In this document: positions 11,934-45,779 of the stretch, in pieces | Layout: every line of letters starts with the position of its first letter | Numbering within the stretch: position 1 is the first letter of the stretch | NCBI GenBank assembly: GCA_009692705.1 | Contig: SHYR01000003.1 | Coordinates: forward strand, 5,170 to 69,169 | Length of the DNA: 64,000 nt | Direction of reading: 5' to 3' | DNA from: Dehalococcoidia bacterium | Lineage (GTDB): Bacteria > Chloroflexota > Dehalococcoidia > UBA2979 | Made by a program: the position numbers and the translations under genes | Notes under the pieces: model-generated | The model's database searches: none | The model's input: the letters and a program-made list of their open reading frames with translations, nothing else | Told to the model about the DNA's origin: nothing

Positions 11934-12647
11934 GTGCGCGTACGCGTCAAGCTCTTCGCCGGCCTCAAGGACGTGATCGGCGGCGACCTCGAAGAGCGCT
12001 TCGAGGGCCCCACCGTCACGGTCCAGCAGCTGCACGAACGGCTGGAGCGCGCCTACCCGCTGCTCGCGCCCCGCCTGGCCGGCGTGGCGATCGCCGTCAA
12101 CCAGGAGTTCATGCTCGACGGCGGCCACGAGCTGCACGACGGCGACGAGGTGGCGCTGATCCCGCCGATCTCGGGCGGCTCAGGCGACGTCGAGCCCGGC
12201 GCTGACGCCGCGGGCACGCCGCACTTCCTGATCACCGAGCGCCCCCTCGACCCGCGCGCGCTGCGCGAGCTGGTGCGCGGCAACCACAGCGGCGCGATCG
12301 TGATCTTCGAGGGCGTCGTGCGCGACCGCCACGAGGGCTACGAGGTGCAGCGCATCGAGTACCACGCCTACGAGTCGATGGCGCTGAAGCAGCTGCAGGC
12401 GGTCGCCGAGGCCGTGCGCGCCGAGCTGGCGGTGCACGACATCGCGATCCACCACCGCACCGGCAGGCTCGAGATCGGCGAGGCCTCGCTCGTGGTCGCC
12501 GTCTCCGCGGAACACCGCGCCGAAGCCTTCGCCGCCGCGCTGCGCGCCGTCGACCGCGTGAAGGAGAGCGTGCCGGTGTGGAAGCGGGAGTTCACGCCCG
12601 ATGGCCCACGCTGGCAGGAGGGCTCGCCAGCCCGCCCGGTCAGGTAA
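11934..12647 (+). CDS. Fused molybdopterin synthase: MoaD (sulfur carrier, internal Gly-Gly) joined to MoaE (catalytic subunit)
   Basis: VRVRVKLFAGLKD...DGDEVALIPPISGG, then a 15-aa linker, then the MoaE core FEGVVRDRHEGYEVQRIEYHAYESMA...HHRTGRLEIGEASLVVAVSAEHRAEAF...VPVWKRE. GTG start at 11934 with GGAG upstream. The listed ORF start at 11493 is a GC-rich run-in. Confidence 0.85.
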   Translation: MRVRVKLFAGLKDVIGGDLEERFEGPTVTVQQLHERLERAYPLLAPRLAGVAIAVNQEFMLDGGHELHDGDEVALIPPISGGSGDVEPGADAAGTPHFLITERPLDPRALRELVRGNHSGAIVIFEGVVRDRHEGYEVQRIEYHAYESMALKQLQAVAEAVRAELAVHDIAIHHRTGRLEIGEASLVVAVSAEHRAEAFAAALRAVDRVKESVPVWKREFTPDGPRWQEGSPARPVR

Positions 12648-37157: not shown

Positions 37158-37589
37158 TCATGCCAGCTCCAGCGGCTCTTCCTCGATCGTGCCGCCGCGC
37201 CGGATCAGGAAGGCGCGCACCGCCGGCGGCTCCGCCGCCAGCGAGACAATGATGTAGCAGGTCTGCGGGTACATCGGCTCCTGCTCGACCGCGCCCGGCG
37301 GCCAGAAGGCCATGCGCACATCCGTGGGCGAGGGCCTCGCCTCCGAAGCGACGTGCGAGTGGTAGATCGCGAACAGCGTCTCGCCGGTGCGGTCGCGCTG
37401 CTGCTCGAGTTGCAGCATGCGGCGCGGGTCCATCTCGTAGCGATACGGGCTGGCTGCAGCGTTGGTCACGCGGTACACCGCCGCCGCCGCGCCGCCGACC
37501 GCGTGGATCATGCCGCAGGCCTCGTTGGGGAGATCCGCGCGCGCGTGCGCGATCACCTCGTCCACGAAGGCGCGGGGGATGCGCGGCAT
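37158..37589 (-). CDS. JAMM/MPN+ metalloprotease (Mec/CysO-hydrolase type)
   Basis: NEACG (the catalytic Glu region) and the JAMM motif HSHVASEARPSPTD. 143 aa, single domain. Confidence 0.85.
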   Translation of the reverse strand: MPRIPRAFVDEVIAHARADLPNEACGMIHAVGGAAAAVYRVTNAAASPYRYEMDPRRMLQLEQQRDRTGETLFAIYHSHVASEARPSPTDVRMAFWPPGAVEQEPMYPQTCYIIVSLAAEPPAVRAFLIRRGGTIEEEPLELA

Positions 37590-37595
37590 GTGGCC

Positions 37596-38042
37596 TCAGA
37601 GCTCCCACGCCTGCGTCTCGCCGTCGTCGATGCACGCCCCCGCCGCCTGCCACATCTGCAGGAAGGCGGCGCTGAACGGCTCGGCCGCGAGGTGCTCGAT
37701 CCAGTGCGGCCACTCCTGCTCCGGCAGGCGCGCCACGAACTCCGCAAACGGCAGGTGCACCGTCCCGTCCGGCGCGATCCCGAGATCCAGCGACCAGCGC
37801 CCCGCCAGCGCCACCCGCCCCACGGTGCGCGTGCGTTGCATCTGCGCGCCGCGTTCGCGGTAGCGTCGCAGCACCGCGACCCGGAACCGCAGCTGCAGCC
37901 GCCCCGGCTCGCGTGCGGCGAGCGCGCCCGCCAGCAGCGTGCGCTGCTGCGCCGCCGCCGGCGCGATCTCGGACGGCTCGGCTAGACCGGTCACGCGCCT
38001 GGCTGCCCTGCTACCGCCCGCTGCCGGCTGCGACGGCGGCAC
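37596..38042 (-). CDS. Hypothetical protein (about 148 aa) between rhodanese and JAMM protease
   Basis: GC3-rich minus-strand ORF. The stop lies 6 nt before the JAMM start and the start is uncertain. No motif recognised (Trp-rich C-terminus EQEWPHWIEHL...FLQMWQAAGACIDDGETQAWEL). Confidence 0.5.
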   Translation of the reverse strand: MPPSQPAAGGSRAARRVTGLAEPSEIAPAAAQQRTLLAGALAAREPGRLQLRFRVAVLRRYRERGAQMQRTRTVGRVALAGRWSLDLGIAPDGTVHLPFAEFVARLPEQEWPHWIEHLAAEPFSAAFLQMWQAAGACIDDGETQAWEL

Positions 38043-38054
38043 CTGGCGGATCGC

Positions 38055-38879
38055 TTACTTCTCGATCGGGACATCGACCAGCGAACCGTACTCGGTCCAC
38101 GAGCCATCGTAGTTCCGGACATCCTTGAACCCCAGCAGGTGCCGCAGCACAAACCAGGTGTGCGAGGAGCGTTCGCCGATGCGGCAGTAGGCGATCACGG
38201 GCTCGCCGTCCTTGAGGCCCGCGGCGCCGTACAGCGCCCTCAGCTCCGCGGGCGACTTGAACGTGCCGTCCTCGTTCACGGCGCGCGCCCACGGCACACT
38301 CAGCGCGCGCGGGATGTGCCCGCCGCGCTGCGCCGTCTCGCTCATGCCAGGCGGGGCGATCACCTCGCCGCTGAACTCGGCCGGGCTCCGCACGTCGACC
38401 AGCTGCACGCCGCCTTGCGCAACCACCTTCAGCACATCGTCGCGGCGCGCGCGCACCGCCCGGTCGGCATCCTTGGCCCGGTAGCTGGTGCGCCGCGGGT
38501 GGGATTCCTCCTTCGTCACCGGACGACCGTCGGCAAGCCACTTCGCCCGTCCGCCGTCCATCAGCGAGGCCTGCGCGTGTCCGTACAACTCGAGCACCCA
38601 CAGCGCGTAGGCGGCGAACCAGTTGCTGTTGTCGCCGTAGAGCACGACGTGGGTATCGCTGGCGACCCCGGAGGCGCTTGCCAGCTCCTCCAGCGCCTGC
38701 TTCGTCATGACATCGCGCCGCACCGGATCCTGCAGCTGGGTACTCCAGTTCCAACCGGCCGCGCCCCGGATGTGCCCCTCGGCGTAGGCCGCGGTGTCCA
38801 CGTCCACCTCCACGAGGCGCACGTTGGCGTCGTTGCCGTGCTCGGCCACCCACTGGCAGGTCACAAGCTTCTCCACCAT
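38055..38879 (-). CDS. Two-domain rhodanese sulfurtransferase (thiosulfate/3-mercaptopyruvate type)
   Basis: Start at MVEKLVTCQWV with GGGAGGG upstream. HIRGAAGWNW in domain 1 and the active-site loop YCRIGERSSHTWF in domain 2. Confidence 0.85.
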   Translation of the reverse strand: MVEKLVTCQWVAEHGNDANVRLVEVDVDTAAYAEGHIRGAAGWNWSTQLQDPVRRDVMTKQALEELASASGVASDTHVVLYGDNSNWFAAYALWVLELYGHAQASLMDGGRAKWLADGRPVTKEESHPRRTSYRAKDADRAVRARRDDVLKVVAQGGVQLVDVRSPAEFSGEVIAPPGMSETAQRGGHIPRALSVPWARAVNEDGTFKSPAELRALYGAAGLKDGEPVIAYCRIGERSSHTWFVLRHLLGFKDVRNYDGSWTEYGSLVDVPIEK

Positions 38880-39249
38880 CACCCTCCCCTGGGGCCCCTG
38901 CCCGGCGCTCAGCGCGCGCCGCACCGCCTGGCAAGCGCCTGCGGACGTTCGGCGCCCCGTCGATGATCGGATGTGCGGCTGCGACACGCCGCCGCCTGAA
39001 GGTACCACCGGAAAGTTTCACTTGCTCGCGTGCTATGCGACACCTGCGGCCAGCCAATCATCGGCGACGGCTTCGAGCTGCCATTGCTGCCCGGCACGCT
39101 GGTGGCGGATCGGGGCTCCTCCTTCCGCCGCCCCATCTCGGTCACCGCGAGCGTGATCTCCGTCGTCCTCTGCGTGGCCTGTGGCGGGCGCCTGATCGCC
39201 ATCCTGCATCACAAGCTACAAGCCCTGCCCCGCCTGCGAGGTGGCCCCG

Positions 39250-39350: not shown

Positions 39351-40286
39351 CTACCACCAGAGCTTCGCGCTCACGGCCTCTGCGATCTCGTCGTAGTCGC
39401 GGGTCCACAGCCCAGTCGACAGGTACTTCCAGCCACCGTCCGCCAGCAGGCACACGATTTGCCCCTGCTCCATGCGCTCCGCGACCTTCTGTGCCGCTCG
39501 CACCACGGCCCCGCTCGAGATGCCAGCGAAGATGCCGGTGCGGCGCGCCAGCTCCTTGGTGGCGCGGAACGAGCTGGCGGAGTCCACGACGATGCGCCCG
39601 TCCAGCACCGACTCATCGAACACCGGCGGGATGTAGCCCTCTTCCAGGCTGCGCAGTCCCTGCACGAGGTCACCGGGGTGCGGTGCGGCGGCCACGATGC
39701 GCACGCCGGGGCGGTACTGCTTCAGCCGCCGCCCGACGCCGGTGAGCGTGCCGCCGGTGCCCAGGCCCGCCACGAAGACGTCGATCTCAGGCACGTCCGC
39801 GATGATCTCGGGCGCGGTGGTCTCGTAGTGCGCGCGCGGATTCTGCTCGTTCTCATACTGAAACGGCATGAACCAGTCAGGGTGCTCCGCGTGAAGGCGC
39901 TGCGCCATCGCCACCGCGCCGTTGGTGCCCAGCTCGCCGGGCGAGTAGATGATCTCCGCACCGAAGGCGCGCAGCAGCTCCGAGCGCTCGGCGCTCACGG
40001 CGTCTGGCATCACCACCGTCACCGGGTAGCCGCGCAGCTGACCGATCAGCGCCAGCGAGATGCCGGTGTTGCCGGAGGTCGGCTCCAGGATGCGCTGCCC
40101 GGGCCGCAGCCGGCCGCTACGCTCCCCCTCCGCGATCATGAACTTGGCAATGCGGTCCTTCACCGAGCCGGTGGGGTTCTGCCCCTCGAGCTTCGCGAAC
40201 AGCCGCACCGCGGGCTTCGGCGAGAGCACGGAGATCTCCACCACCGGCGTGTTGCCCACCAGGTCCAGCAGGCTCGCGTAGCGCAT
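39351..40286 (-). CDS. cysM: CysM-type cysteine synthase (candidate CysO-thiocarboxylate-dependent O-phosphoserine sulfhydrylase)
   Basis: NPTGSVKDRIA (PLP-Lys), EPTSGNTGISLA and GLGTGGTLTG. It lies immediately downstream of a GG-terminated sulfur carrier. Confidence 0.85.
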   Translation of the reverse strand: MRYASLLDLVGNTPVVEISVLSPKPAVRLFAKLEGQNPTGSVKDRIAKFMIAEGERSGRLRPGQRILEPTSGNTGISLALIGQLRGYPVTVVMPDAVSAERSELLRAFGAEIIYSPGELGTNGAVAMAQRLHAEHPDWFMPFQYENEQNPRAHYETTAPEIIADVPEIDVFVAGLGTGGTLTGVGRRLKQYRPGVRIVAAAPHPGDLVQGLRSLEEGYIPPVFDESVLDGRIVVDSASSFRATKELARRTGIFAGISSGAVVRAAQKVAERMEQGQIVCLLADGGWKYLSTGLWTRDYDEIAEAVSAKLWW

Positions 40287-40303: not shown

Positions 40304-40579
40304 CTAGCCGCCGGCCAGCGCGGGGAGGATGGAGACGGCGTCGCCGTCCTTGAGCGCCGTGCCGCGGCCGCCCAGGTAGCGGATGTCCTCGTCGTTAAGG
40401 TAGATGTTCACGAAGCGGTGCAGCTCGCCGGCTTCGTCTTCCAGCTGGCGGCGAAACCCCGGATAGCGGCGATCGATGTTCGCGATCAGCTCGGCGATCG
40501 TGCGGCCCTCCGCCTCGAACGACTTCTGGCCGTTGACGGCCTTCTGGATCACCGACGTGACGTGTACCTGCACCGGCAA
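40304..40579 (-). CDS. cysO: MoaD/ThiS-family sulfur-carrier protein ending in Gly-Gly (CysO-like)
   Basis: 91 aa. ...RFVNIYLNDEDIRYLGGRGTALKDGDAVSILPALAGG-stop. Confidence 0.85.
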   Translation of the reverse strand: MPVQVHVTSVIQKAVNGQKSFEAEGRTIAELIANIDRRYPGFRRQLEDEAGELHRFVNIYLNDEDIRYLGGRGTALKDGDAVSILPALAGG

Positions 40580-40649: not shown

Positions 40650-41783
40650 TCAGTGGCGAGCGGCGATCGCGGCGGCCTCTTCCGCCAGCGGCGGCGTGCC
40701 GCAGAACTGGTCGTAGTCGATCAACTCGGTAACCGTCGGGTGCTCGCCGCACAGCGGGCAGCGCGGATCACGCCGCAGCTTCATCGTGCGGAACTCCATC
40801 GTCAGCGCGTCGACCAGCAGTAGCCGCCCGACCAGCGACTGGCCGATGCCGAGGATCTGCTTGAACACCTCGGTTGCCTGGATCGAGCCCACAATGCCGG
40901 TGATCGAGCCCAGCACGCCCGCTTCCGCGCACGACGGCACCAGTCCCGGCGGTGGCGGCGATGGGTAGAGGCAGCGGTAGCAGCCGCCGCCCGGCTTAAA
41001 GACCGTGGCCTGGCCGTCGAACAGCAGGATCGACCCGTCCACCAGCGTTTTGCCCAGCAGGTAGCAGGCGTCGTTCACCAGGTAGCGGGTGGCGAAGTTG
41101 TCGGCGCCGTTCACCACGATGTCGTAATCGCGGATAATCTCCATCGCGTTATCGGAGGTCAGCGGGGCGCCGTGCGGACGCACCGTGACATGCGGGTTGT
41201 AGGCCGCCAGCTTCTCCTGCGCCGAGAGCAGCTTCGACTTGCCGATGTCCGGCGTCTGGTGCAGCAGTTGCCGCTGCAGGTTCGAGAGCTCGACGATGTC
41301 GAACTCCGCGATCCCCACCGTGCCGACGCCCGCCAGCGCCAGGTAGATCGCCACCGGCGAGCCGAGCCCGCCCGCGCCCACCACCAGCACCTTCGCGTTG
41401 CGCAGCTTGCGCTGCCCGCTCGGGCCCACCGGCCCCATGATGATGTGCCGCGAGTAGCGCATCACCTCGTCCGGCGTCATCGCCACCGAGGCGGCGCCGC
41501 CGTCCGCTGCGCCGCCCGCCAGCGCCGGGATGACCGCGATCTGGTCCCCGTCTGCCAGCGCCGTCTCGACCCCCTCCAGCTCGTGGATCTCGCGGTTGTT
41601 GACGTAGATGCTGATGTGCTGCGGCACCCGCCGCGCACCGTCGTAGACCAGCATCTCGAAGCCGGGGTAGCGCGCGGTCAGCGCCTCCAGCACCTCGGCC
41701 ACGCTGCCACCCTCCACGCTCACGTAGTCGTGATCGTGGGTCAGCCGCCGCCACGGCGAGGGGATGTACACGCTCACGGTCAT
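40650..41783 (-). CDS. Fusion of an N-terminal MoaD/ThiS-like beta-grasp domain (internal ...IPALAGG) to a ThiF/MoeB/MoeZ-type E1 adenylyltransferase
   Basis: Residues 1-91 parallel CysO (ISIYVNNREIHELEGVETALADGDQIAVIPALAGG). The linker is AADGGAASVA. The E1 core has RYSRHI, VLVVGAGGLGSP, CYRCLYP...SCAEAGVLG...CPLCG. There is no C-terminal rhodanese domain. Confidence 0.85.
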   Translation of the reverse strand: MTVSVYIPSPWRRLTHDHDYVSVEGGSVAEVLEALTARYPGFEMLVYDGARRVPQHISIYVNNREIHELEGVETALADGDQIAVIPALAGGAADGGAASVAMTPDEVMRYSRHIIMGPVGPSGQRKLRNAKVLVVGAGGLGSPVAIYLALAGVGTVGIAEFDIVELSNLQRQLLHQTPDIGKSKLLSAQEKLAAYNPHVTVRPHGAPLTSDNAMEIIRDYDIVVNGADNFATRYLVNDACYLLGKTLVDGSILLFDGQATVFKPGGGCYRCLYPSPPPPGLVPSCAEAGVLGSITGIVGSIQATEVFKQILGIGQSLVGRLLLVDALTMEFRTMKLRRDPRCPLCGEHPTVTELIDYDQFCGTPPLAEEAAAIAARH

Positions 41784-41841: not shown

Positions 41842-42789
41842 TCACAGCGGCACGCTCAAGTAGCGCTCGCCGGTGTCGCAGAGCATCGTCACCACGCGCT
41901 TGCCCGCCCCGAGCTGGCGCGCGACCTGGAGCGAGGCCCAGACGTTGGCTCCCGAGGAGATGCCGACCAGCAGCCCCTCCTCGCGCGCCAGCCGCTTCGT
42001 CATCGCGAACGCGTCCTCGTCCCGCACCGCCATCACCTCGTCGTAGATCGCGGTGTTGAGCACGCTTGGCACGAACGACGCGCCGATGCCCTGGATGCCG
42101 TGCACGCCGGCGCGGCCGCCCTGCAGCACCGGCGCCCGCGCCGGTTCCACCGCCACCACGCGCGCGTGCACCCCGGCGTCGCGCAGCACCTCGCCGACGC
42201 CGGTGATCGTGCCGCCGGTGCCGACGCCGGCCACGAAGGCGTCCAGCTGCCCGCCGGTGGCCTCCAGGATCTCGGGGCCGGTGGTGCGTCGGTGGATCTC
42301 CGGGTTCGCCTGGTTGTCGAACTGCTGCGGCATGAAGTAGCCATGGCGCTCCTGCAGCTCCCGCGCCGCGTACACCGCGCCGGTCATGCCCTCGATCGCC
42401 GGCGTGAGCACCAGCTCGGCGCCCAGCCGCTCCAGCAGCCGCCGTCGCTCCACGCTCATGTCCTCCGGCATCGTCAGCACCAGCCGGTAGCCCTTGCGCG
42501 CGCATACCACCGCCAGCCCGACCCCGGTGTTGCCGGACGTGGGCTCCACCAGCGTGTCGCCGTGGTGGATGCGGCCTTCACGCTCCGCCGCCTCCACCAT
42601 GCTCAGCGCGATGCGATCCTTCACCGAGCCGCCGGGGTTGCGCGCCTCCACCTTGCCCAGGATCTCCGCCACGCCCTCCGGCGCGATGCGCGCCAGCCGC
42701 ACGAGCGGGGTCGCGCCGATCAGCTCCAGCACGGAGCCGGCGATCAGGGGTTGGCCGCGCAGGGTGGCAGGCATCGGCGCCTCCGCCAT
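41842..42789 (-). CDS. cysK: O-acetylserine sulfhydrylase (cysteine synthase A)
   Basis: NPGGSVKDRIALSM, EPTSGNTGVGLA, GVGTGGTITG, GIQGIGA and SSGAN. Confidence 0.9.
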   Translation of the reverse strand: MAEAPMPATLRGQPLIAGSVLELIGATPLVRLARIAPEGVAEILGKVEARNPGGSVKDRIALSMVEAAEREGRIHHGDTLVEPTSGNTGVGLAVVCARKGYRLVLTMPEDMSVERRRLLERLGAELVLTPAIEGMTGAVYAARELQERHGYFMPQQFDNQANPEIHRRTTGPEILEATGGQLDAFVAGVGTGGTITGVGEVLRDAGVHARVVAVEPARAPVLQGGRAGVHGIQGIGASFVPSVLNTAIYDEVMAVRDEDAFAMTKRLAREEGLLVGISSGANVWASLQVARQLGAGKRVVTMLCDTGERYLSVPL

Positions 42790-42796
42790 CGTGATC

Positions 42797-43258
42797 TCAG
42801 ATCTTGTAGTGGGGCGCGGCGGCCATCACCCGCTCGGCCCGCTCGCGCTCGCGCTCGCGCTCCGTGAGGTCGGCCAGCGAGATCGCGGCCAAGCGCCGGC
42901 GCATCTCGTCGAAGATCTCGCGCCACACCCACTGCTGCCCGCAGAGCGGGTCGTGCGCGTCGTCCGCTGGGTCGTCGGAGAGGCAGCCCAGCGGCGCCAG
43001 CGAGCCCTCGAGGCTCTCCAGCACGTGCAGCAGGCAGATCTCGGCGGGTGGCCTCGCCAGCTCGTGCCCGCCGCCCGGGCCCCGCGTGCTGCGGATGAAC
43101 CCGTCTCGCCGCAGCTGTGCCAGCAGGTGGTCCAGGTACGACTCCGGAATCTGCCGCCGGTGCGCGATGTCGGCCCGCTGCACCGGGCCTTCGCCCTCGT
43201 GCAGGGCGAGCTCGATCAGCGCGCGCACACCATAGTCCCCCTTGGTGCTGATTTTCAC
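42797..43258 (-). CDS. Rrf2-family transcriptional regulator (CymR/IscR-like)
   Basis: MKISTKGDYGVRALIELAL..., IPESYLDHLLAQLRRDGFIRSTRGPGGG. It is the first gene of the cysK operon. A TACAAT -10-like hexamer lies at 43309-43314 (minus strand). Confidence 0.85.
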   Translation of the reverse strand: MKISTKGDYGVRALIELALHEGEGPVQRADIAHRRQIPESYLDHLLAQLRRDGFIRSTRGPGGGHELARPPAEICLLHVLESLEGSLAPLGCLSDDPADDAHDPLCGQQWVWREIFDEMRRRLAAISLADLTERERERERAERVMAAAPHYKI

Positions 43259-43680: not shown

Positions 43681-43956
43681 CTACCCGCCCGCGACCGCCG
43701 GCACGATCGATACCTCGTCACCTTCGCCGAGCGCGGTCGCCAGCCCCTGCAGGAAGCGCACGTCCTCGCCGTTGACGTAGACGTTGACGAAGCGGCGCAG
43801 CTCCCCGGACGCCTCGCACAGCCGCTCGCGCATCCCCGGGTAGCTGCGCTCCAGCTCGCTCACGAGCTCAGCGATCGAGCCGCTCCCCGCCGCGACCGTC
43901 TCGAGGCCGCTGGTGAGTGTGCGCAGGGGGGTCGGGATCTTGACGGTGACGGCCAT
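43681..43956 (-). CDS. Second free-standing MoaD/ThiS-family sulfur carrier ending in Gly-Gly (MetO/HcyS-like by context)
   Basis: 91 aa. ...RFVNVYVNGEDVRFLQGLATALGEGDEVSIVPAVAGG-stop. It is a paralogue of the carrier at 40304-40579. Confidence 0.8.
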   Translation of the reverse strand: MAVTVKIPTPLRTLTSGLETVAAGSGSIAELVSELERSYPGMRERLCEASGELRRFVNVYVNGEDVRFLQGLATALGEGDEVSIVPAVAGG

Positions 43957-44040: not shown

Positions 44041-44286
44041 CTATCGGTCGACGATGTCACCGAGCGTGGGGTCGTCGACGCGCACGCCGAGCTCGCGCGC
44101 CCACGCGAGGGCGCGCTCGATCTCGTCGCGCTCGCCCTCCAGCTCCAGCACCACCCAGCCCACGTGCTCGTCCACGTCCGCCATGCGGATGTTAGTCACG
44201 ATCTGGAACTTGTGCCCGAGCTGGTAGATCACCGGCTCCAGGATCAGCCCCGGCTCGAACGTCATGCGCACGCGCTTGCTCACCAT
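44041..44286 (-). CDS. NIL-domain protein (stand-alone)
   Basis: 81 aa. VRMTFEPGLILEPVIYQLGHKFQIVTNIRMADVDEHVGWVVLELEGERDEIERALAWARELGVRV. The fold and motif match the C-terminal domain of MetN. Confidence 0.75.
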   Translation of the reverse strand: MVSKRVRMTFEPGLILEPVIYQLGHKFQIVTNIRMADVDEHVGWVVLELEGERDEIERALAWARELGVRVDDPTLGDIVDR

Positions 44287-44288
44287 CG

Positions 44289-45536
44289 CTACGCTCCCGT
44301 CGTCACGGCCAGGCGCGCGGCCAGCGTGGCCTCGAAGGCGCGCGCGTTCGCCGGCACCCGCAGCGGCGCCTCCAGCCGGTCCACCACCGCCTCCACGGTC
44401 TTCAAGCCGGCGCCGGTAATGAAGGCCACGGTCTCCTCGTCGCGCCGGATGTGGCCGCTCTTCACCATGCGCTTCAGGCAGGCGATCGTCACCCCGCCGG
44501 CGGTCTCCGCGAAGATGCCCTCGGTCTCCGCCAGCAGCTTCACGCCCTCGATGATCTCATCATCGCTCGCCATCTCCGCGCCGCCGTTGGTCTCCTGCAT
44601 CGTCTTCAGCGCATAGTAGCCGTCCGCCGGGTTCCCGATCGCGAGCGAGCGCGCGATCGTGTTCGGCTTCTGCGGCACGAAGTTGAACGTGCCGGCCGCG
44701 TAGGCGGTGGTGATCGGCGAGCAGCCGCTCGCCTGCGCGCCCGACATGCGCGTGTGCGGCTCTTCGATCAGACCGATGCGCGCGAACTCCTTGAAGCCCT
44801 TCCATATCTTGGTGTAGAGCGAGCCCGACGCCATCGGCACCACCACGTGATCCGGCGCGCGCCAGCCGAGCTGTTCGGCGACCTCGAAGGCCAGCGTGCG
44901 CGATCCCTCGGCGTAGTAGGGACGGACGTTGATGTTCACGAACGCCCACTGGCGCGAGCCGGAGAGCTCCGTGCAGAGGCGATTCACGTCGTCGTAGGAG
45001 CCCTCCACCATCACCAGCGTGGGGCGGTAGATCGCGCTGCCCACGACCTTGCCCTGCTCGAGGTCCTGCGGGATGAAGACGTAGGCCTGCATGCCGGCGT
45101 GCGCGGCGTGCGCGGCGACGGCGTTCGCGAGGTTGCCGGTGCTCGCGCAGGCCAGCGCCTCGAAGCCGAACTGGCGAGCGCGCGCGATCGCCACCGCCAC
45201 CACGCGATCCTTGAACGACCACGTGGGGTTCACGGTGTCGTTCTTCAGCCACAGCCGCTCCAGCCCCAGCCGCGCGCCGAGGCGCTCGGCGCGGATCAGG
45301 GGCGTGAACCCGGTCCCGAGATCGACCTTGTACGCAGGATCGCAGGGCAGCAGCTCGGCGTAGCGCCACAGCGTCTTCGGACCGGCGGCGATGTGCTCAC
45401 GCGAGGTCGCGCGCGCGATCGCGTCGTAGTCGTAATCGACCTCCAGCGGGCCGAAGCAGAACTCGCACGAGAAGATCGGCGTCAGCGAGTACTCGCGGCC
45501 GCATTCGCGGCAGCGCAGGGCCCTCTCGTAGGACAT
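44289..45536 (-). CDS. Threonine-synthase-family PLP enzyme with N-terminal zinc ribbon (second ThrC paralogue; candidate sulfur-carrier-dependent homocysteine synthase)
   Basis: Start at MSYERALRCRECGREYSLTPIFSCEFCFGPLEV. PLP-Lys NPTWSFKDRV and ASTGNLANAVAAHAA. It is translationally close-packed with the NIL and ThiS-like genes. Confidence 0.85.
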   Translation of the reverse strand: MSYERALRCRECGREYSLTPIFSCEFCFGPLEVDYDYDAIARATSREHIAAGPKTLWRYAELLPCDPAYKVDLGTGFTPLIRAERLGARLGLERLWLKNDTVNPTWSFKDRVVAVAIARARQFGFEALACASTGNLANAVAAHAAHAGMQAYVFIPQDLEQGKVVGSAIYRPTLVMVEGSYDDVNRLCTELSGSRQWAFVNINVRPYYAEGSRTLAFEVAEQLGWRAPDHVVVPMASGSLYTKIWKGFKEFARIGLIEEPHTRMSGAQASGCSPITTAYAAGTFNFVPQKPNTIARSLAIGNPADGYYALKTMQETNGGAEMASDDEIIEGVKLLAETEGIFAETAGGVTIACLKRMVKSGHIRRDEETVAFITGAGLKTVEAVVDRLEAPLRVPANARAFEATLAARLAVTTGA

Positions 45537-45779
45537 CGGATCACACTCTCTCTGCGCGGGATGGGATGGCGCCGGGGATGCCCGCGCCCACGGCCGCACG
45601 CAGCGGCCGCGACCGGGCTAGCGCATCGCCATGCGGTCCAAGCGGTGGCGTCGTGCGATCACCGCTGTCGCCCTTCGTTCATCGCTGCCGGGCACCGCAA
45701 CCACGCCGCCGCCGGTGCGGAACCGCACCGCCCGCCCCGATGCATTCGAGGCTAGGAGCGCGCCCGCGCTGCTGTCAAC

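Follow-up and report, generated by a model that had tools for sequence, protein, structure and literature searches.

Why would a sulfur carrier be made with its Gly-Gly tail buried inside its own activating enzyme? The question is raised by an open reading frame (ORF) on the minus strand of a 64,000-nucleotide stretch of DNA from Dehalococcoidia bacterium (assembly GCA_009692705.1, contig SHYR01000003.1, positions 5,170 to 69,169), which we call the window. At 40650..41783 it encodes, in a single open frame, a protein of 377 amino acids (40.2 kDa) in which a ubiquitin-like (Ubl) sulfur carrier domain precedes an E1 adenylyltransferase. Sulfur carriers require a free C-terminal Gly carboxylate both for adenylation and for entry into the CysM active site. 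A carrier of the ThiS/MoaD family is expected to end in Gly-Gly (GG); in the fusion as translated the GG is internal (residues 90-91 of 377, with 286 residues trailing Gly91), so a terminal GG would arise only after cleavage. We propose that the fusion is a pro-carrier released by the JAMM metalloprotease encoded at 37158..37589, and give this reading a probability of roughly 60%.

By sequence as well as by fold, the protein is a member of the ThiS/MoaD and MoeB/ThiF families. Its first 91 residues (41511..41783), which a preliminary description of the window had taken for a full MoaD/ThiS-like domain, are indeed a beta-grasp carrier domain of the CysO/SAMP1 type, with a mass of 9.99 kDa if released. 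Residues 14-91 match the Pfam family ThiS (PF02597; E 7e-12, 46.1 bits against a cut-off of 22.5), and the closest solved relative found by phmmer is CysO (3dwg_C, 2e-11) over the full length. Modelled alone with AlphaFold2 (AF2), the domain reaches a mean predicted local distance difference test score (pLDDT) of 88 and adopts the beta-grasp fold; the best Foldseek structures, at template modelling (TM) scores of 0.85-0.91, are CysO of Mycobacterium tuberculosis (3dwg_C, 0.85/0.88) and of Amycolatopsis (A. orientalis, 4n6e_B). Matches to the NCBIfam SAMP1 and moaD_arch models stay under their cut-offs. The domain ends in AVIPALAGG, with Gly90-Gly91 encoded at 41511-41516. It aligns without gaps, at 36% identity each, to the two free 91-residue carriers of the window, one CysO-like (40304..40579) and one MetO-like (43681..43956). 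The CysO-like gene starts 70 nt after the stop of the fusion, and the nearly identical C-terminal block that had been reported for its product is seen when the tails are compared (...DGDQIAVIPALAGG in the fusion versus ...DGDAVSILPALAGG in the free carrier).

The Ala/Gly linker and the ThiF/MoeB-type domain with two CxxC pairs that had been described after the carrier were likewise recovered. The linker, AADGGAASV, occupies residues 92-100 (41484..41510, nine residues) and is predicted to be disordered: residues 87-117 of the full-length AF2 model have pLDDT below 50, at a predicted TM score of 0.63. It is followed by ...MTPDEVMRYSRH and the GAGGLG motif, with the usual N-terminal helix of MoeB-type E1 enzymes starting right after the linker (AMTPDEVMRYSRH). 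The E1 part (residues 101-377, 40650..41483) matches ThiF (PF00899) over residues 110-343 (E 1.4e-78, 263.8 bits) and passes a single NCBIfam E1 model, the MoeB subfamily PRK05690 (288 against 266 bits). Of the 392 positions of the MoeZ model only 14-284 are matched, for a score of 365 where 647 is required, and the UbaA equivalog is not reached. The chain stops about 30 residues past the second CxxC and carries no C-terminal rhodanese domain; the rhodanese, fused in MoeZ/MoeBR/Uba4-type enzymes, is a separate gene here (38055-39008). Foldseek pairs the E1 part with MoeB (1jw9_B) and ThiF (1zud) at target-normalised TM scores of 0.87-0.90 (0.87 for 1jw9_B), and the E1 signatures RYSRH, GAGGLG, C268xxC271, the loop C285 and C342xxC345 are invariant among 21 aligned fusions. 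An internal start producing a separate E1 was rejected, as Met102 is not conserved (consensus A-L-T-P) and is preceded by no clear ribosome-binding site. A scan for promoters and terminators gave nothing beyond shuffled expectation.

The pattern of conservation sets the tail of the carrier apart from what follows it. When 20 fusions are set against the window protein, mean identity reaches 97% in the tail (residues 83-91) and 81% in the E1, but 60% in the Ubl core and 34% in the linker. The nine-residue tail is therefore the best-conserved segment of the fusion, with the motif AVIPA[LIVM]AGG near-invariant, and the linker is among the worst. In close relatives, the GG is followed directly by Ala, Ser or Asp. 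Between the GG and RYSRH the spacing ranges from 9 to about 45 residues across phyla, roughly five-fold, which means that no fixed interdomain geometry is conserved. A tail conserved like that of a carrier, next to a spacer of no set length, fits a cleavage site and substrate tail better than a fixed docking geometry.

The fusion is widespread, not rare. We collected the best 120 database homologues (66-83% identity), which come from independent assemblies, mostly named Chloroflexota or Dehalococcoidia metagenome-assembled genomes (MAGs). Both Pfam domains are present in 119 of them, the exception (P0002) being an unfused E1, and PxxxGG is retained before the E1 in 118 of these 119. The sole GG-less fused homologue, P0018 (385 amino acids), has the tail AVIPALAAG, with GG changed to AG; it is represented by one member sequence and may be a sequencing error or a real variant. 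In an even sample of 201 Chloroflexota genomes, the full-length fusion without an internal stop is encoded by 15, which represent 8 families. A scan of species-representative genomes recovered 28 clear fusions, in records labelled as Chloroflexota lineages, Acidobacteriota and a Moorellaceae strain. The JGI annotation of such proteins is 'adenylyltransferase/molybdopterin converting factor small subunit'.

We surveyed the neighbours of these 28 fused loci and of 48 unfused loci within about 4 kb. The fused domain is the only carrier in 19 of the 28 fused loci, a CysM/K-type pyridoxal phosphate (PLP) enzyme is encoded in 26 and a JAMM in 23. At one locus (L035) the genes for cysM, the Ubl-E1 fusion, the JAMM and a rhodanese overlap or almost touch; in records labelled Acidobacteriota the gene order is PALP, JAMM and a fusion of Ubl, E1 and rhodanese. 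These three-domain proteins of about 500 amino acids (CysO-MoeZ type), in the order PALP-JAMM-fusion-Rrf2, were seen at L050-L057, L060-L062, L069, L071, L072 and L076, all labelled Acidobacteriota save one Bifidobacteriaceae. Elsewhere a rhodanese takes the N-terminal place of the carrier: in the Caldilineales/Anaerolineae records L085, L088, L095 and L105 the E1 begins with a rhodanese domain (…GGFNGWKNAGL…RYSRH), and a separate Ubl gene lies upstream. At L027-L029 (genomes G161, G179 and G116) one stop codon separates the E1 from a single-domain rhodanese gene upstream of it and in its frame, which has the look of a near-fusion.

Co-occurrence with a JAMM was considered as evidence of cleavage and set aside at both levels. 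Among genomes it does not discriminate (14 of 15 genomes with the fusion have a JAMM, as do 164 of 201 overall). Among loci it is strong (23 of 28 fused against 10 of 48 unfused, Fisher p 2e-7); we did not count it, because the signal goes with the presence of any carrier gene close by (of 15 unfused loci that have a Ubl, 8 have a JAMM) and the loci are phylogenetically clustered.

Masked GG ends are the norm among close relatives of the fused Ubl domain. Of its 129 nearest representatives, only 31 end at GG, and 49 continue for 1-12 residues; another 22 are fused to an E1, and the remaining 27 bear other long tails, among them NIL, rhodanese and second Ubl domains. In two genomes the Ubl and the E1 are encoded by neighbouring, unfused genes that share a frame; there, too, the Ubl runs past the GG, ending in GG-VE or GG-SLIPSLTGEG. 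A CysO-like carrier beside cysM in another relative (L003, 9120-9449) has 18 residues past the GG (ALAGG|DGRAGGSVRPVSGGWGRLR), with more GG pairs among them. In a tree of the Ubl domain (91 columns, poorly resolved) parsimony counts 10 changes of the fused state, of which well-supported branches force 1; this suggests that a Ubl may have been joined to an E1 repeatedly.

The candidate processing enzyme (37158..37589, minus strand) is a JAMM/MPN+ metalloprotease of the Mec+/desampylase-like kind (PF14464, 4.7e-19). Its metal motif, E23 ... H77-S-H79-x7-S87-x2-D90, is intact, and its relatives in the PDB include 2kks_A and the Pyrococcus JAMM1 (PfJAMM1, 5lda). Under our proposal the CysO-type carrier (residues 1-91) would be made as part of the same polypeptide as the sole MoeB/ThiF-type E1 detected in the genome, and the JAMM would cut the proposed scissile bond Gly91|Ala92 in the disordered linker. 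Enzymes of this type also hydrolyse carrier-Cys adducts, as in the mycobacterial CysO pathway, and would trim capped carriers elsewhere. This would yield a carrier of 10 kDa that exposes its Gly-Gly carboxylate, and an E1 of 30 kDa. The dimeric E1 could then adenylate not only the freed carrier but also the two free ones (CysO-like and MetO-like) and the MoaD that is cut from a MoaD-MoaE fusion; the tandem rhodanese would supply persulfide sulfur for the thiocarboxylates, to be used by the CysM-like and the ThrC/MetM-like PLP enzymes to make cysteine and homocysteine. The domain identities, the pattern of conservation and the gene context were observed directly, and from them we infer the cleavage, the identity of the protease and the acceptor enzyme of the released carrier.

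Part of this logic comes from the genome itself (1.18 Mb, 77% complete), in which we found one ThiF-family E1, the fusion, and one clear JAB, the JAMM at 37158..37589. Five ThiS-family domains were found: the two free carriers, the fused one, a carrier ending in GGH and the MoaD of a MoaD-MoaE fusion. The latter, a second linear Ubl fusion within the window (11934..12647, plus strand; the GG ends at 12179), has an internal GG at the junction IPPISGG|SGDVEPG (...IPPISGG|SGDVEPGADAAG...; ...IPPISGG|SGDVEPGADAAGTPHF...). Since this protein holds the only MoaE match of the genome, joined to its only MoaD, molybdopterin synthase in this organism also depends on a cut after the GG. The GGH carrier is a free ThiS-like protein of 88 amino acids ending in IPAIAGGH, one residue past the GG, and is encoded on the genome's own contig 43 (L008, 1492-1758, plus strand); its gene lies just downstream of that for a CoxL/xanthine-dehydrogenase-like molybdenum subunit. 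The genome thus needs a GG endopeptidase anyway, for the MoaD-MoaE fusion and for the GGH carrier.

We favour the precursor for several reasons: the GG tail is tightly constrained while the adjoining linker, predicted to be disordered, varies freely in sequence and length; the fused domain is often the only carrier in the cysM/JAMM operon of relatives; its close Ubl relatives are mostly made with masked GG ends, and the Ubl of split relatives is still capped past the GG; the endopeptidase is required in this genome in any case; and JAMM cleavage of linear MoaD-MoaE fusions is established by experiment (PMC8832034; for MoaX cleavage, PMC4326299). The preliminary description had left the choice between a pro-protein cut after the GG by the JAMM and an uncleaved docking or regulatory domain. 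The comparative evidence favours the first, with the cut itself still a proposal. Neither of the two findings that were said to count against the fusion was made: the N-terminal domain is predicted to have the beta-grasp fold, and the frame is intact.

A number of points weigh against cleavage. With two free carriers already in the cluster, a further one seems superfluous in this window. Mec+-type hydrolysis of carrier-Cys or carrier-homocysteine adducts is reason enough for the JAMM, whose presence goes with nearby carrier genes of either kind, fused and free. The rhodanese that Caldilineales/Anaerolineae carry at the same N-terminal place of this E1 family presumably acts uncleaved. The MoaD-like protein of T. 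thermophilus (1v8c) crystallised as an intact fusion with an internal GG, and the literature we searched holds no bench test of cleavage for any Ubl-E1 fusion. Finally, Iyer et al. 2006 (PMC1779556) argued that a Ubl fused to a ThiF beside a solo ThiS has a different role.

That last argument, together with the free CysO-like and MetO-like carriers, the N-terminal rhodanese of relatives and the intact 1v8c, would suit an N-terminal domain that is never cleaved and remains a permanently tethered ubiquitin-fold module. Such a module could give the E1 a docking surface for carrier-recognising enzymes (CysM, the ThrC-like enzyme, the JAMM or the rhodanese), could aid folding or dimer assembly, or could serve as a built-in regulator competing with the free carriers; a MoaD fusion tag raises the expression of heterologous proteins (PMC3906898). 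However, docking needs neither an invariant GG nor a 97%-conserved tail beside a linker that changes freely and varies about five-fold in length, and in 19 of the 28 fused loci no other carrier stands beside the cysteine synthase and the JAMM. By established adenylation chemistry, a peptide-bonded tail cannot enter the active site of the E1 or of CysM as a substrate. We regard a permanent tether as the main rival reading, with a probability of about one in four.

More doubtful is the idea of the fusion as an E1 zymogen, beyond a convenient precursor. Before the cut, the carrier on its tether, or the peptide-bonded tail of that carrier, would occupy the adenylation site of its own or of the partner subunit and keep the only detected E1 shut for the CysO, MetO, MoaD and GGH carriers. 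The JAMM cut would then be a licensing switch for all thiocarboxylate-dependent pathways, with the first adenylation primed in place.

Very improbable is a main role of the released domain in modifying proteins, as SAMP, TtuB and Urm1 do; the E1 would then conjugate it to target lysines, the JAMM would remove it, and sulfur donation would not be its primary role. The sequences do resemble SAMP1, the SAMP-activating E1 UbaA and desampylase, and archaeal SAMP1 both carries sulfur and modifies MoaE, a modification reversed by HvJAMM1 (PMC4443979). The three NCBIfam matches nevertheless fall under their equivalog cut-offs (52 against 60, 317 against 450 and 67 against 130 bits), and the neighbourhood is that of sulfur assimilation into cysteine and methionine, controlled by an Rrf2 regulator and devoid of any E2-like gene.

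That a lost stop or a frameshift in assembly or sequencing joined two genes can practically be dismissed. Two relatives do have the Ubl and the E1 adjacent in one frame with a single stop between them, and in one MAG (L046) the two parts lie out of frame with each other. But the junction at about 41480-41515, where a check for such an error had been advised, shows no stop and no change of frame within the ORF. The fusion is kept by 119 of the 120 best homologues, which stem from independent assemblies, is uninterrupted in 15 of the 201 sampled Chloroflexota genomes, and was recovered at 28 loci whose labels span several phyla.

The fusion lies in a sulfur island whose genes are all on the minus strand and whose order is kept in relatives: the ThrC-like PLP enzyme, a NIL ORF and the MetO-like carrier; Rrf2, CysK, the Ubl-E1 fusion, the CysO-like carrier and the CysM-like enzyme; then the tandem rhodanese, a 148-residue ORF, the JAMM, folP and folK. 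The operon that holds the fusion is headed by an Rrf2-family regulator (42797..43258; PF02082, 1.2e-35), and the order Rrf2-CysK-fusion is conserved. Pairing of an Rrf2 regulator with CysK is a regulatory arrangement known from Bacillus. CysK (41842..42789) is of the O-acetylserine sulfhydrylase A type (TIGR01139, 434 bits against a cut-off of 351); it was considered as the cognate acceptor of the fused carrier and rejected, as it scores as an ordinary CysK. The free CysO-like carrier, ending in ALAGG at the stop codon, is followed by the CysM-like PLP-dependent cysteine synthase (39351..40286; PF00291), which scores under the cysK and cysM equivalog cut-offs.

On the other side of Rrf2, the MetO-like carrier ends in AVAGG at the stop codon. 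Between it and the ThrC-like gene is a stand-alone NIL-domain ORF of 81 amino acids (44041..44286), and a PF09383 gene occupies the same place in relatives. Among database relatives of the MetO-like carrier there are proteins in which the carrier, the GG and a NIL domain are fused (e.g. P0202, P0224 and P0268). The ThrC-like PLP enzyme (44289..45599; PF00291, start codon uncertain) has an N-terminal Cys4 ribbon and is a MetM-like candidate; the MetM/MetO pathway is listed in PMC13759103. The tandem-rhodanese sulfurtransferase (38055..39008; PF00581 in two stretches) is conserved in position and is likely the persulfide donor for an E1 that has no rhodanese domain of its own. The conserved 148-residue ORF between the rhodanese and the JAMM (37596..38042) has no match in Pfam; orthologues in the same position are about 54% identical in L001 and L002 and occur also in L039, L040, L045, L046 and L047.

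If cleavage takes place as proposed, the rule that linear Ubl precursors are freed by a JAMM, known from MoaD-MoaE, capped carriers and archaeal/eukaryotic ubiquitin, would extend to a carrier made on its own E1, and the single JAMM of such genomes would be a general maturase for several carriers. The pairing of a Ubl with an E1 is spread over Chloroflexota, records labelled Acidobacteriota and elsewhere, and annotation pipelines that call these fusions only 'MoeB' miss the carrier. For sulfur assimilation in uncultured Chloroflexota this is a useful, incremental gain in understanding.

The architecture itself is already catalogued. Iyer, Burroughs and Aravind listed Ubl-ThiF architectures in 2006, one example with cysteine synthase genes, and proposed that a JAB frees fused ThiS/MoaD (PMC1779556); Makarova and Koonin described 'Ubl-E1-TBP ... 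shared with bacteria' in 2010 (PMC2948915). The window protein shares with both an N-terminal ubiquitin-fold domain on a ThiF/MoeB-type E1. The Ubl family of 2006, however, was called 'distinct from ThiS', whereas the domain in the window is a standard CysO-type carrier with an invariant GG.

Among processed carriers, there are close parallels in linear fusions. The M. tuberculosis MoaD-MoaE fusion MoaX must be cut after Gly82 to function, and Gly81 is needed for recognition (PMC4326299); in Deinococcus radiodurans the JAMM DR0402 cleaves the MoaD-MoaE fusion DR2607 (PMC8832034). The window protein is built as both are: a ThiS/MoaD-family carrier whose internal GG leads, through a small residue and a linker, into a partner enzyme. 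It differs in that the partner is the activating E1 instead of the sulfur acceptor, and in that cleavage here is proposed from comparison. In thioquinolobactin and chuangxinmycin synthesis, QbsD and CxnF are proposed to trim the capped carriers QbsE and CxnE (PMC5925218). There, too, residues past the GG would have to be removed before adenylation and a JAMM is encoded nearby, but the 'cap' in the window is a whole enzyme of 286 residues. HcyS-Ala and HcyD of Wolinella likewise pair a capped carrier with the JAMM that trims it. Ubiquitin, too, is made in linear beta-grasp fusions (polyubiquitin, Ub-L40/S27a) that a dedicated peptidase frees at Gly-Gly; in the archaeon Caldiarchaeum the pro-ubiquitin is processed by Rpn11, a JAMM (PMC6043591). 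The window differs from these in its sulfur transfer context, in lacking E2 and E3, and in having the E1 itself as the partner.

Another of the closest known systems is the CysO-CysM-Mec+-MoeZ route of M. tuberculosis (CysO 3dwg/3dwm), which makes cysteine by way of a thiocarboxylate. The best sequence and structure match of the carrier domain is CysO, and the window cluster has the corresponding CysM-like PLP enzyme, JAMM, E1 and rhodanese. Unlike that route, the window joins one copy of the carrier covalently to the E1, has an E1 without the C-terminal rhodanese of MoeZ, the rhodanese being a gene of its own, and adds a second carrier/PLP pair (MetO/MetM-like) and CysK. By analogy, then, the system in the window resembles the mycobacterial CysO/CysM/Mec+/MoeZ pathway combined with the pro-carrier logic of MoaX and DR2607.

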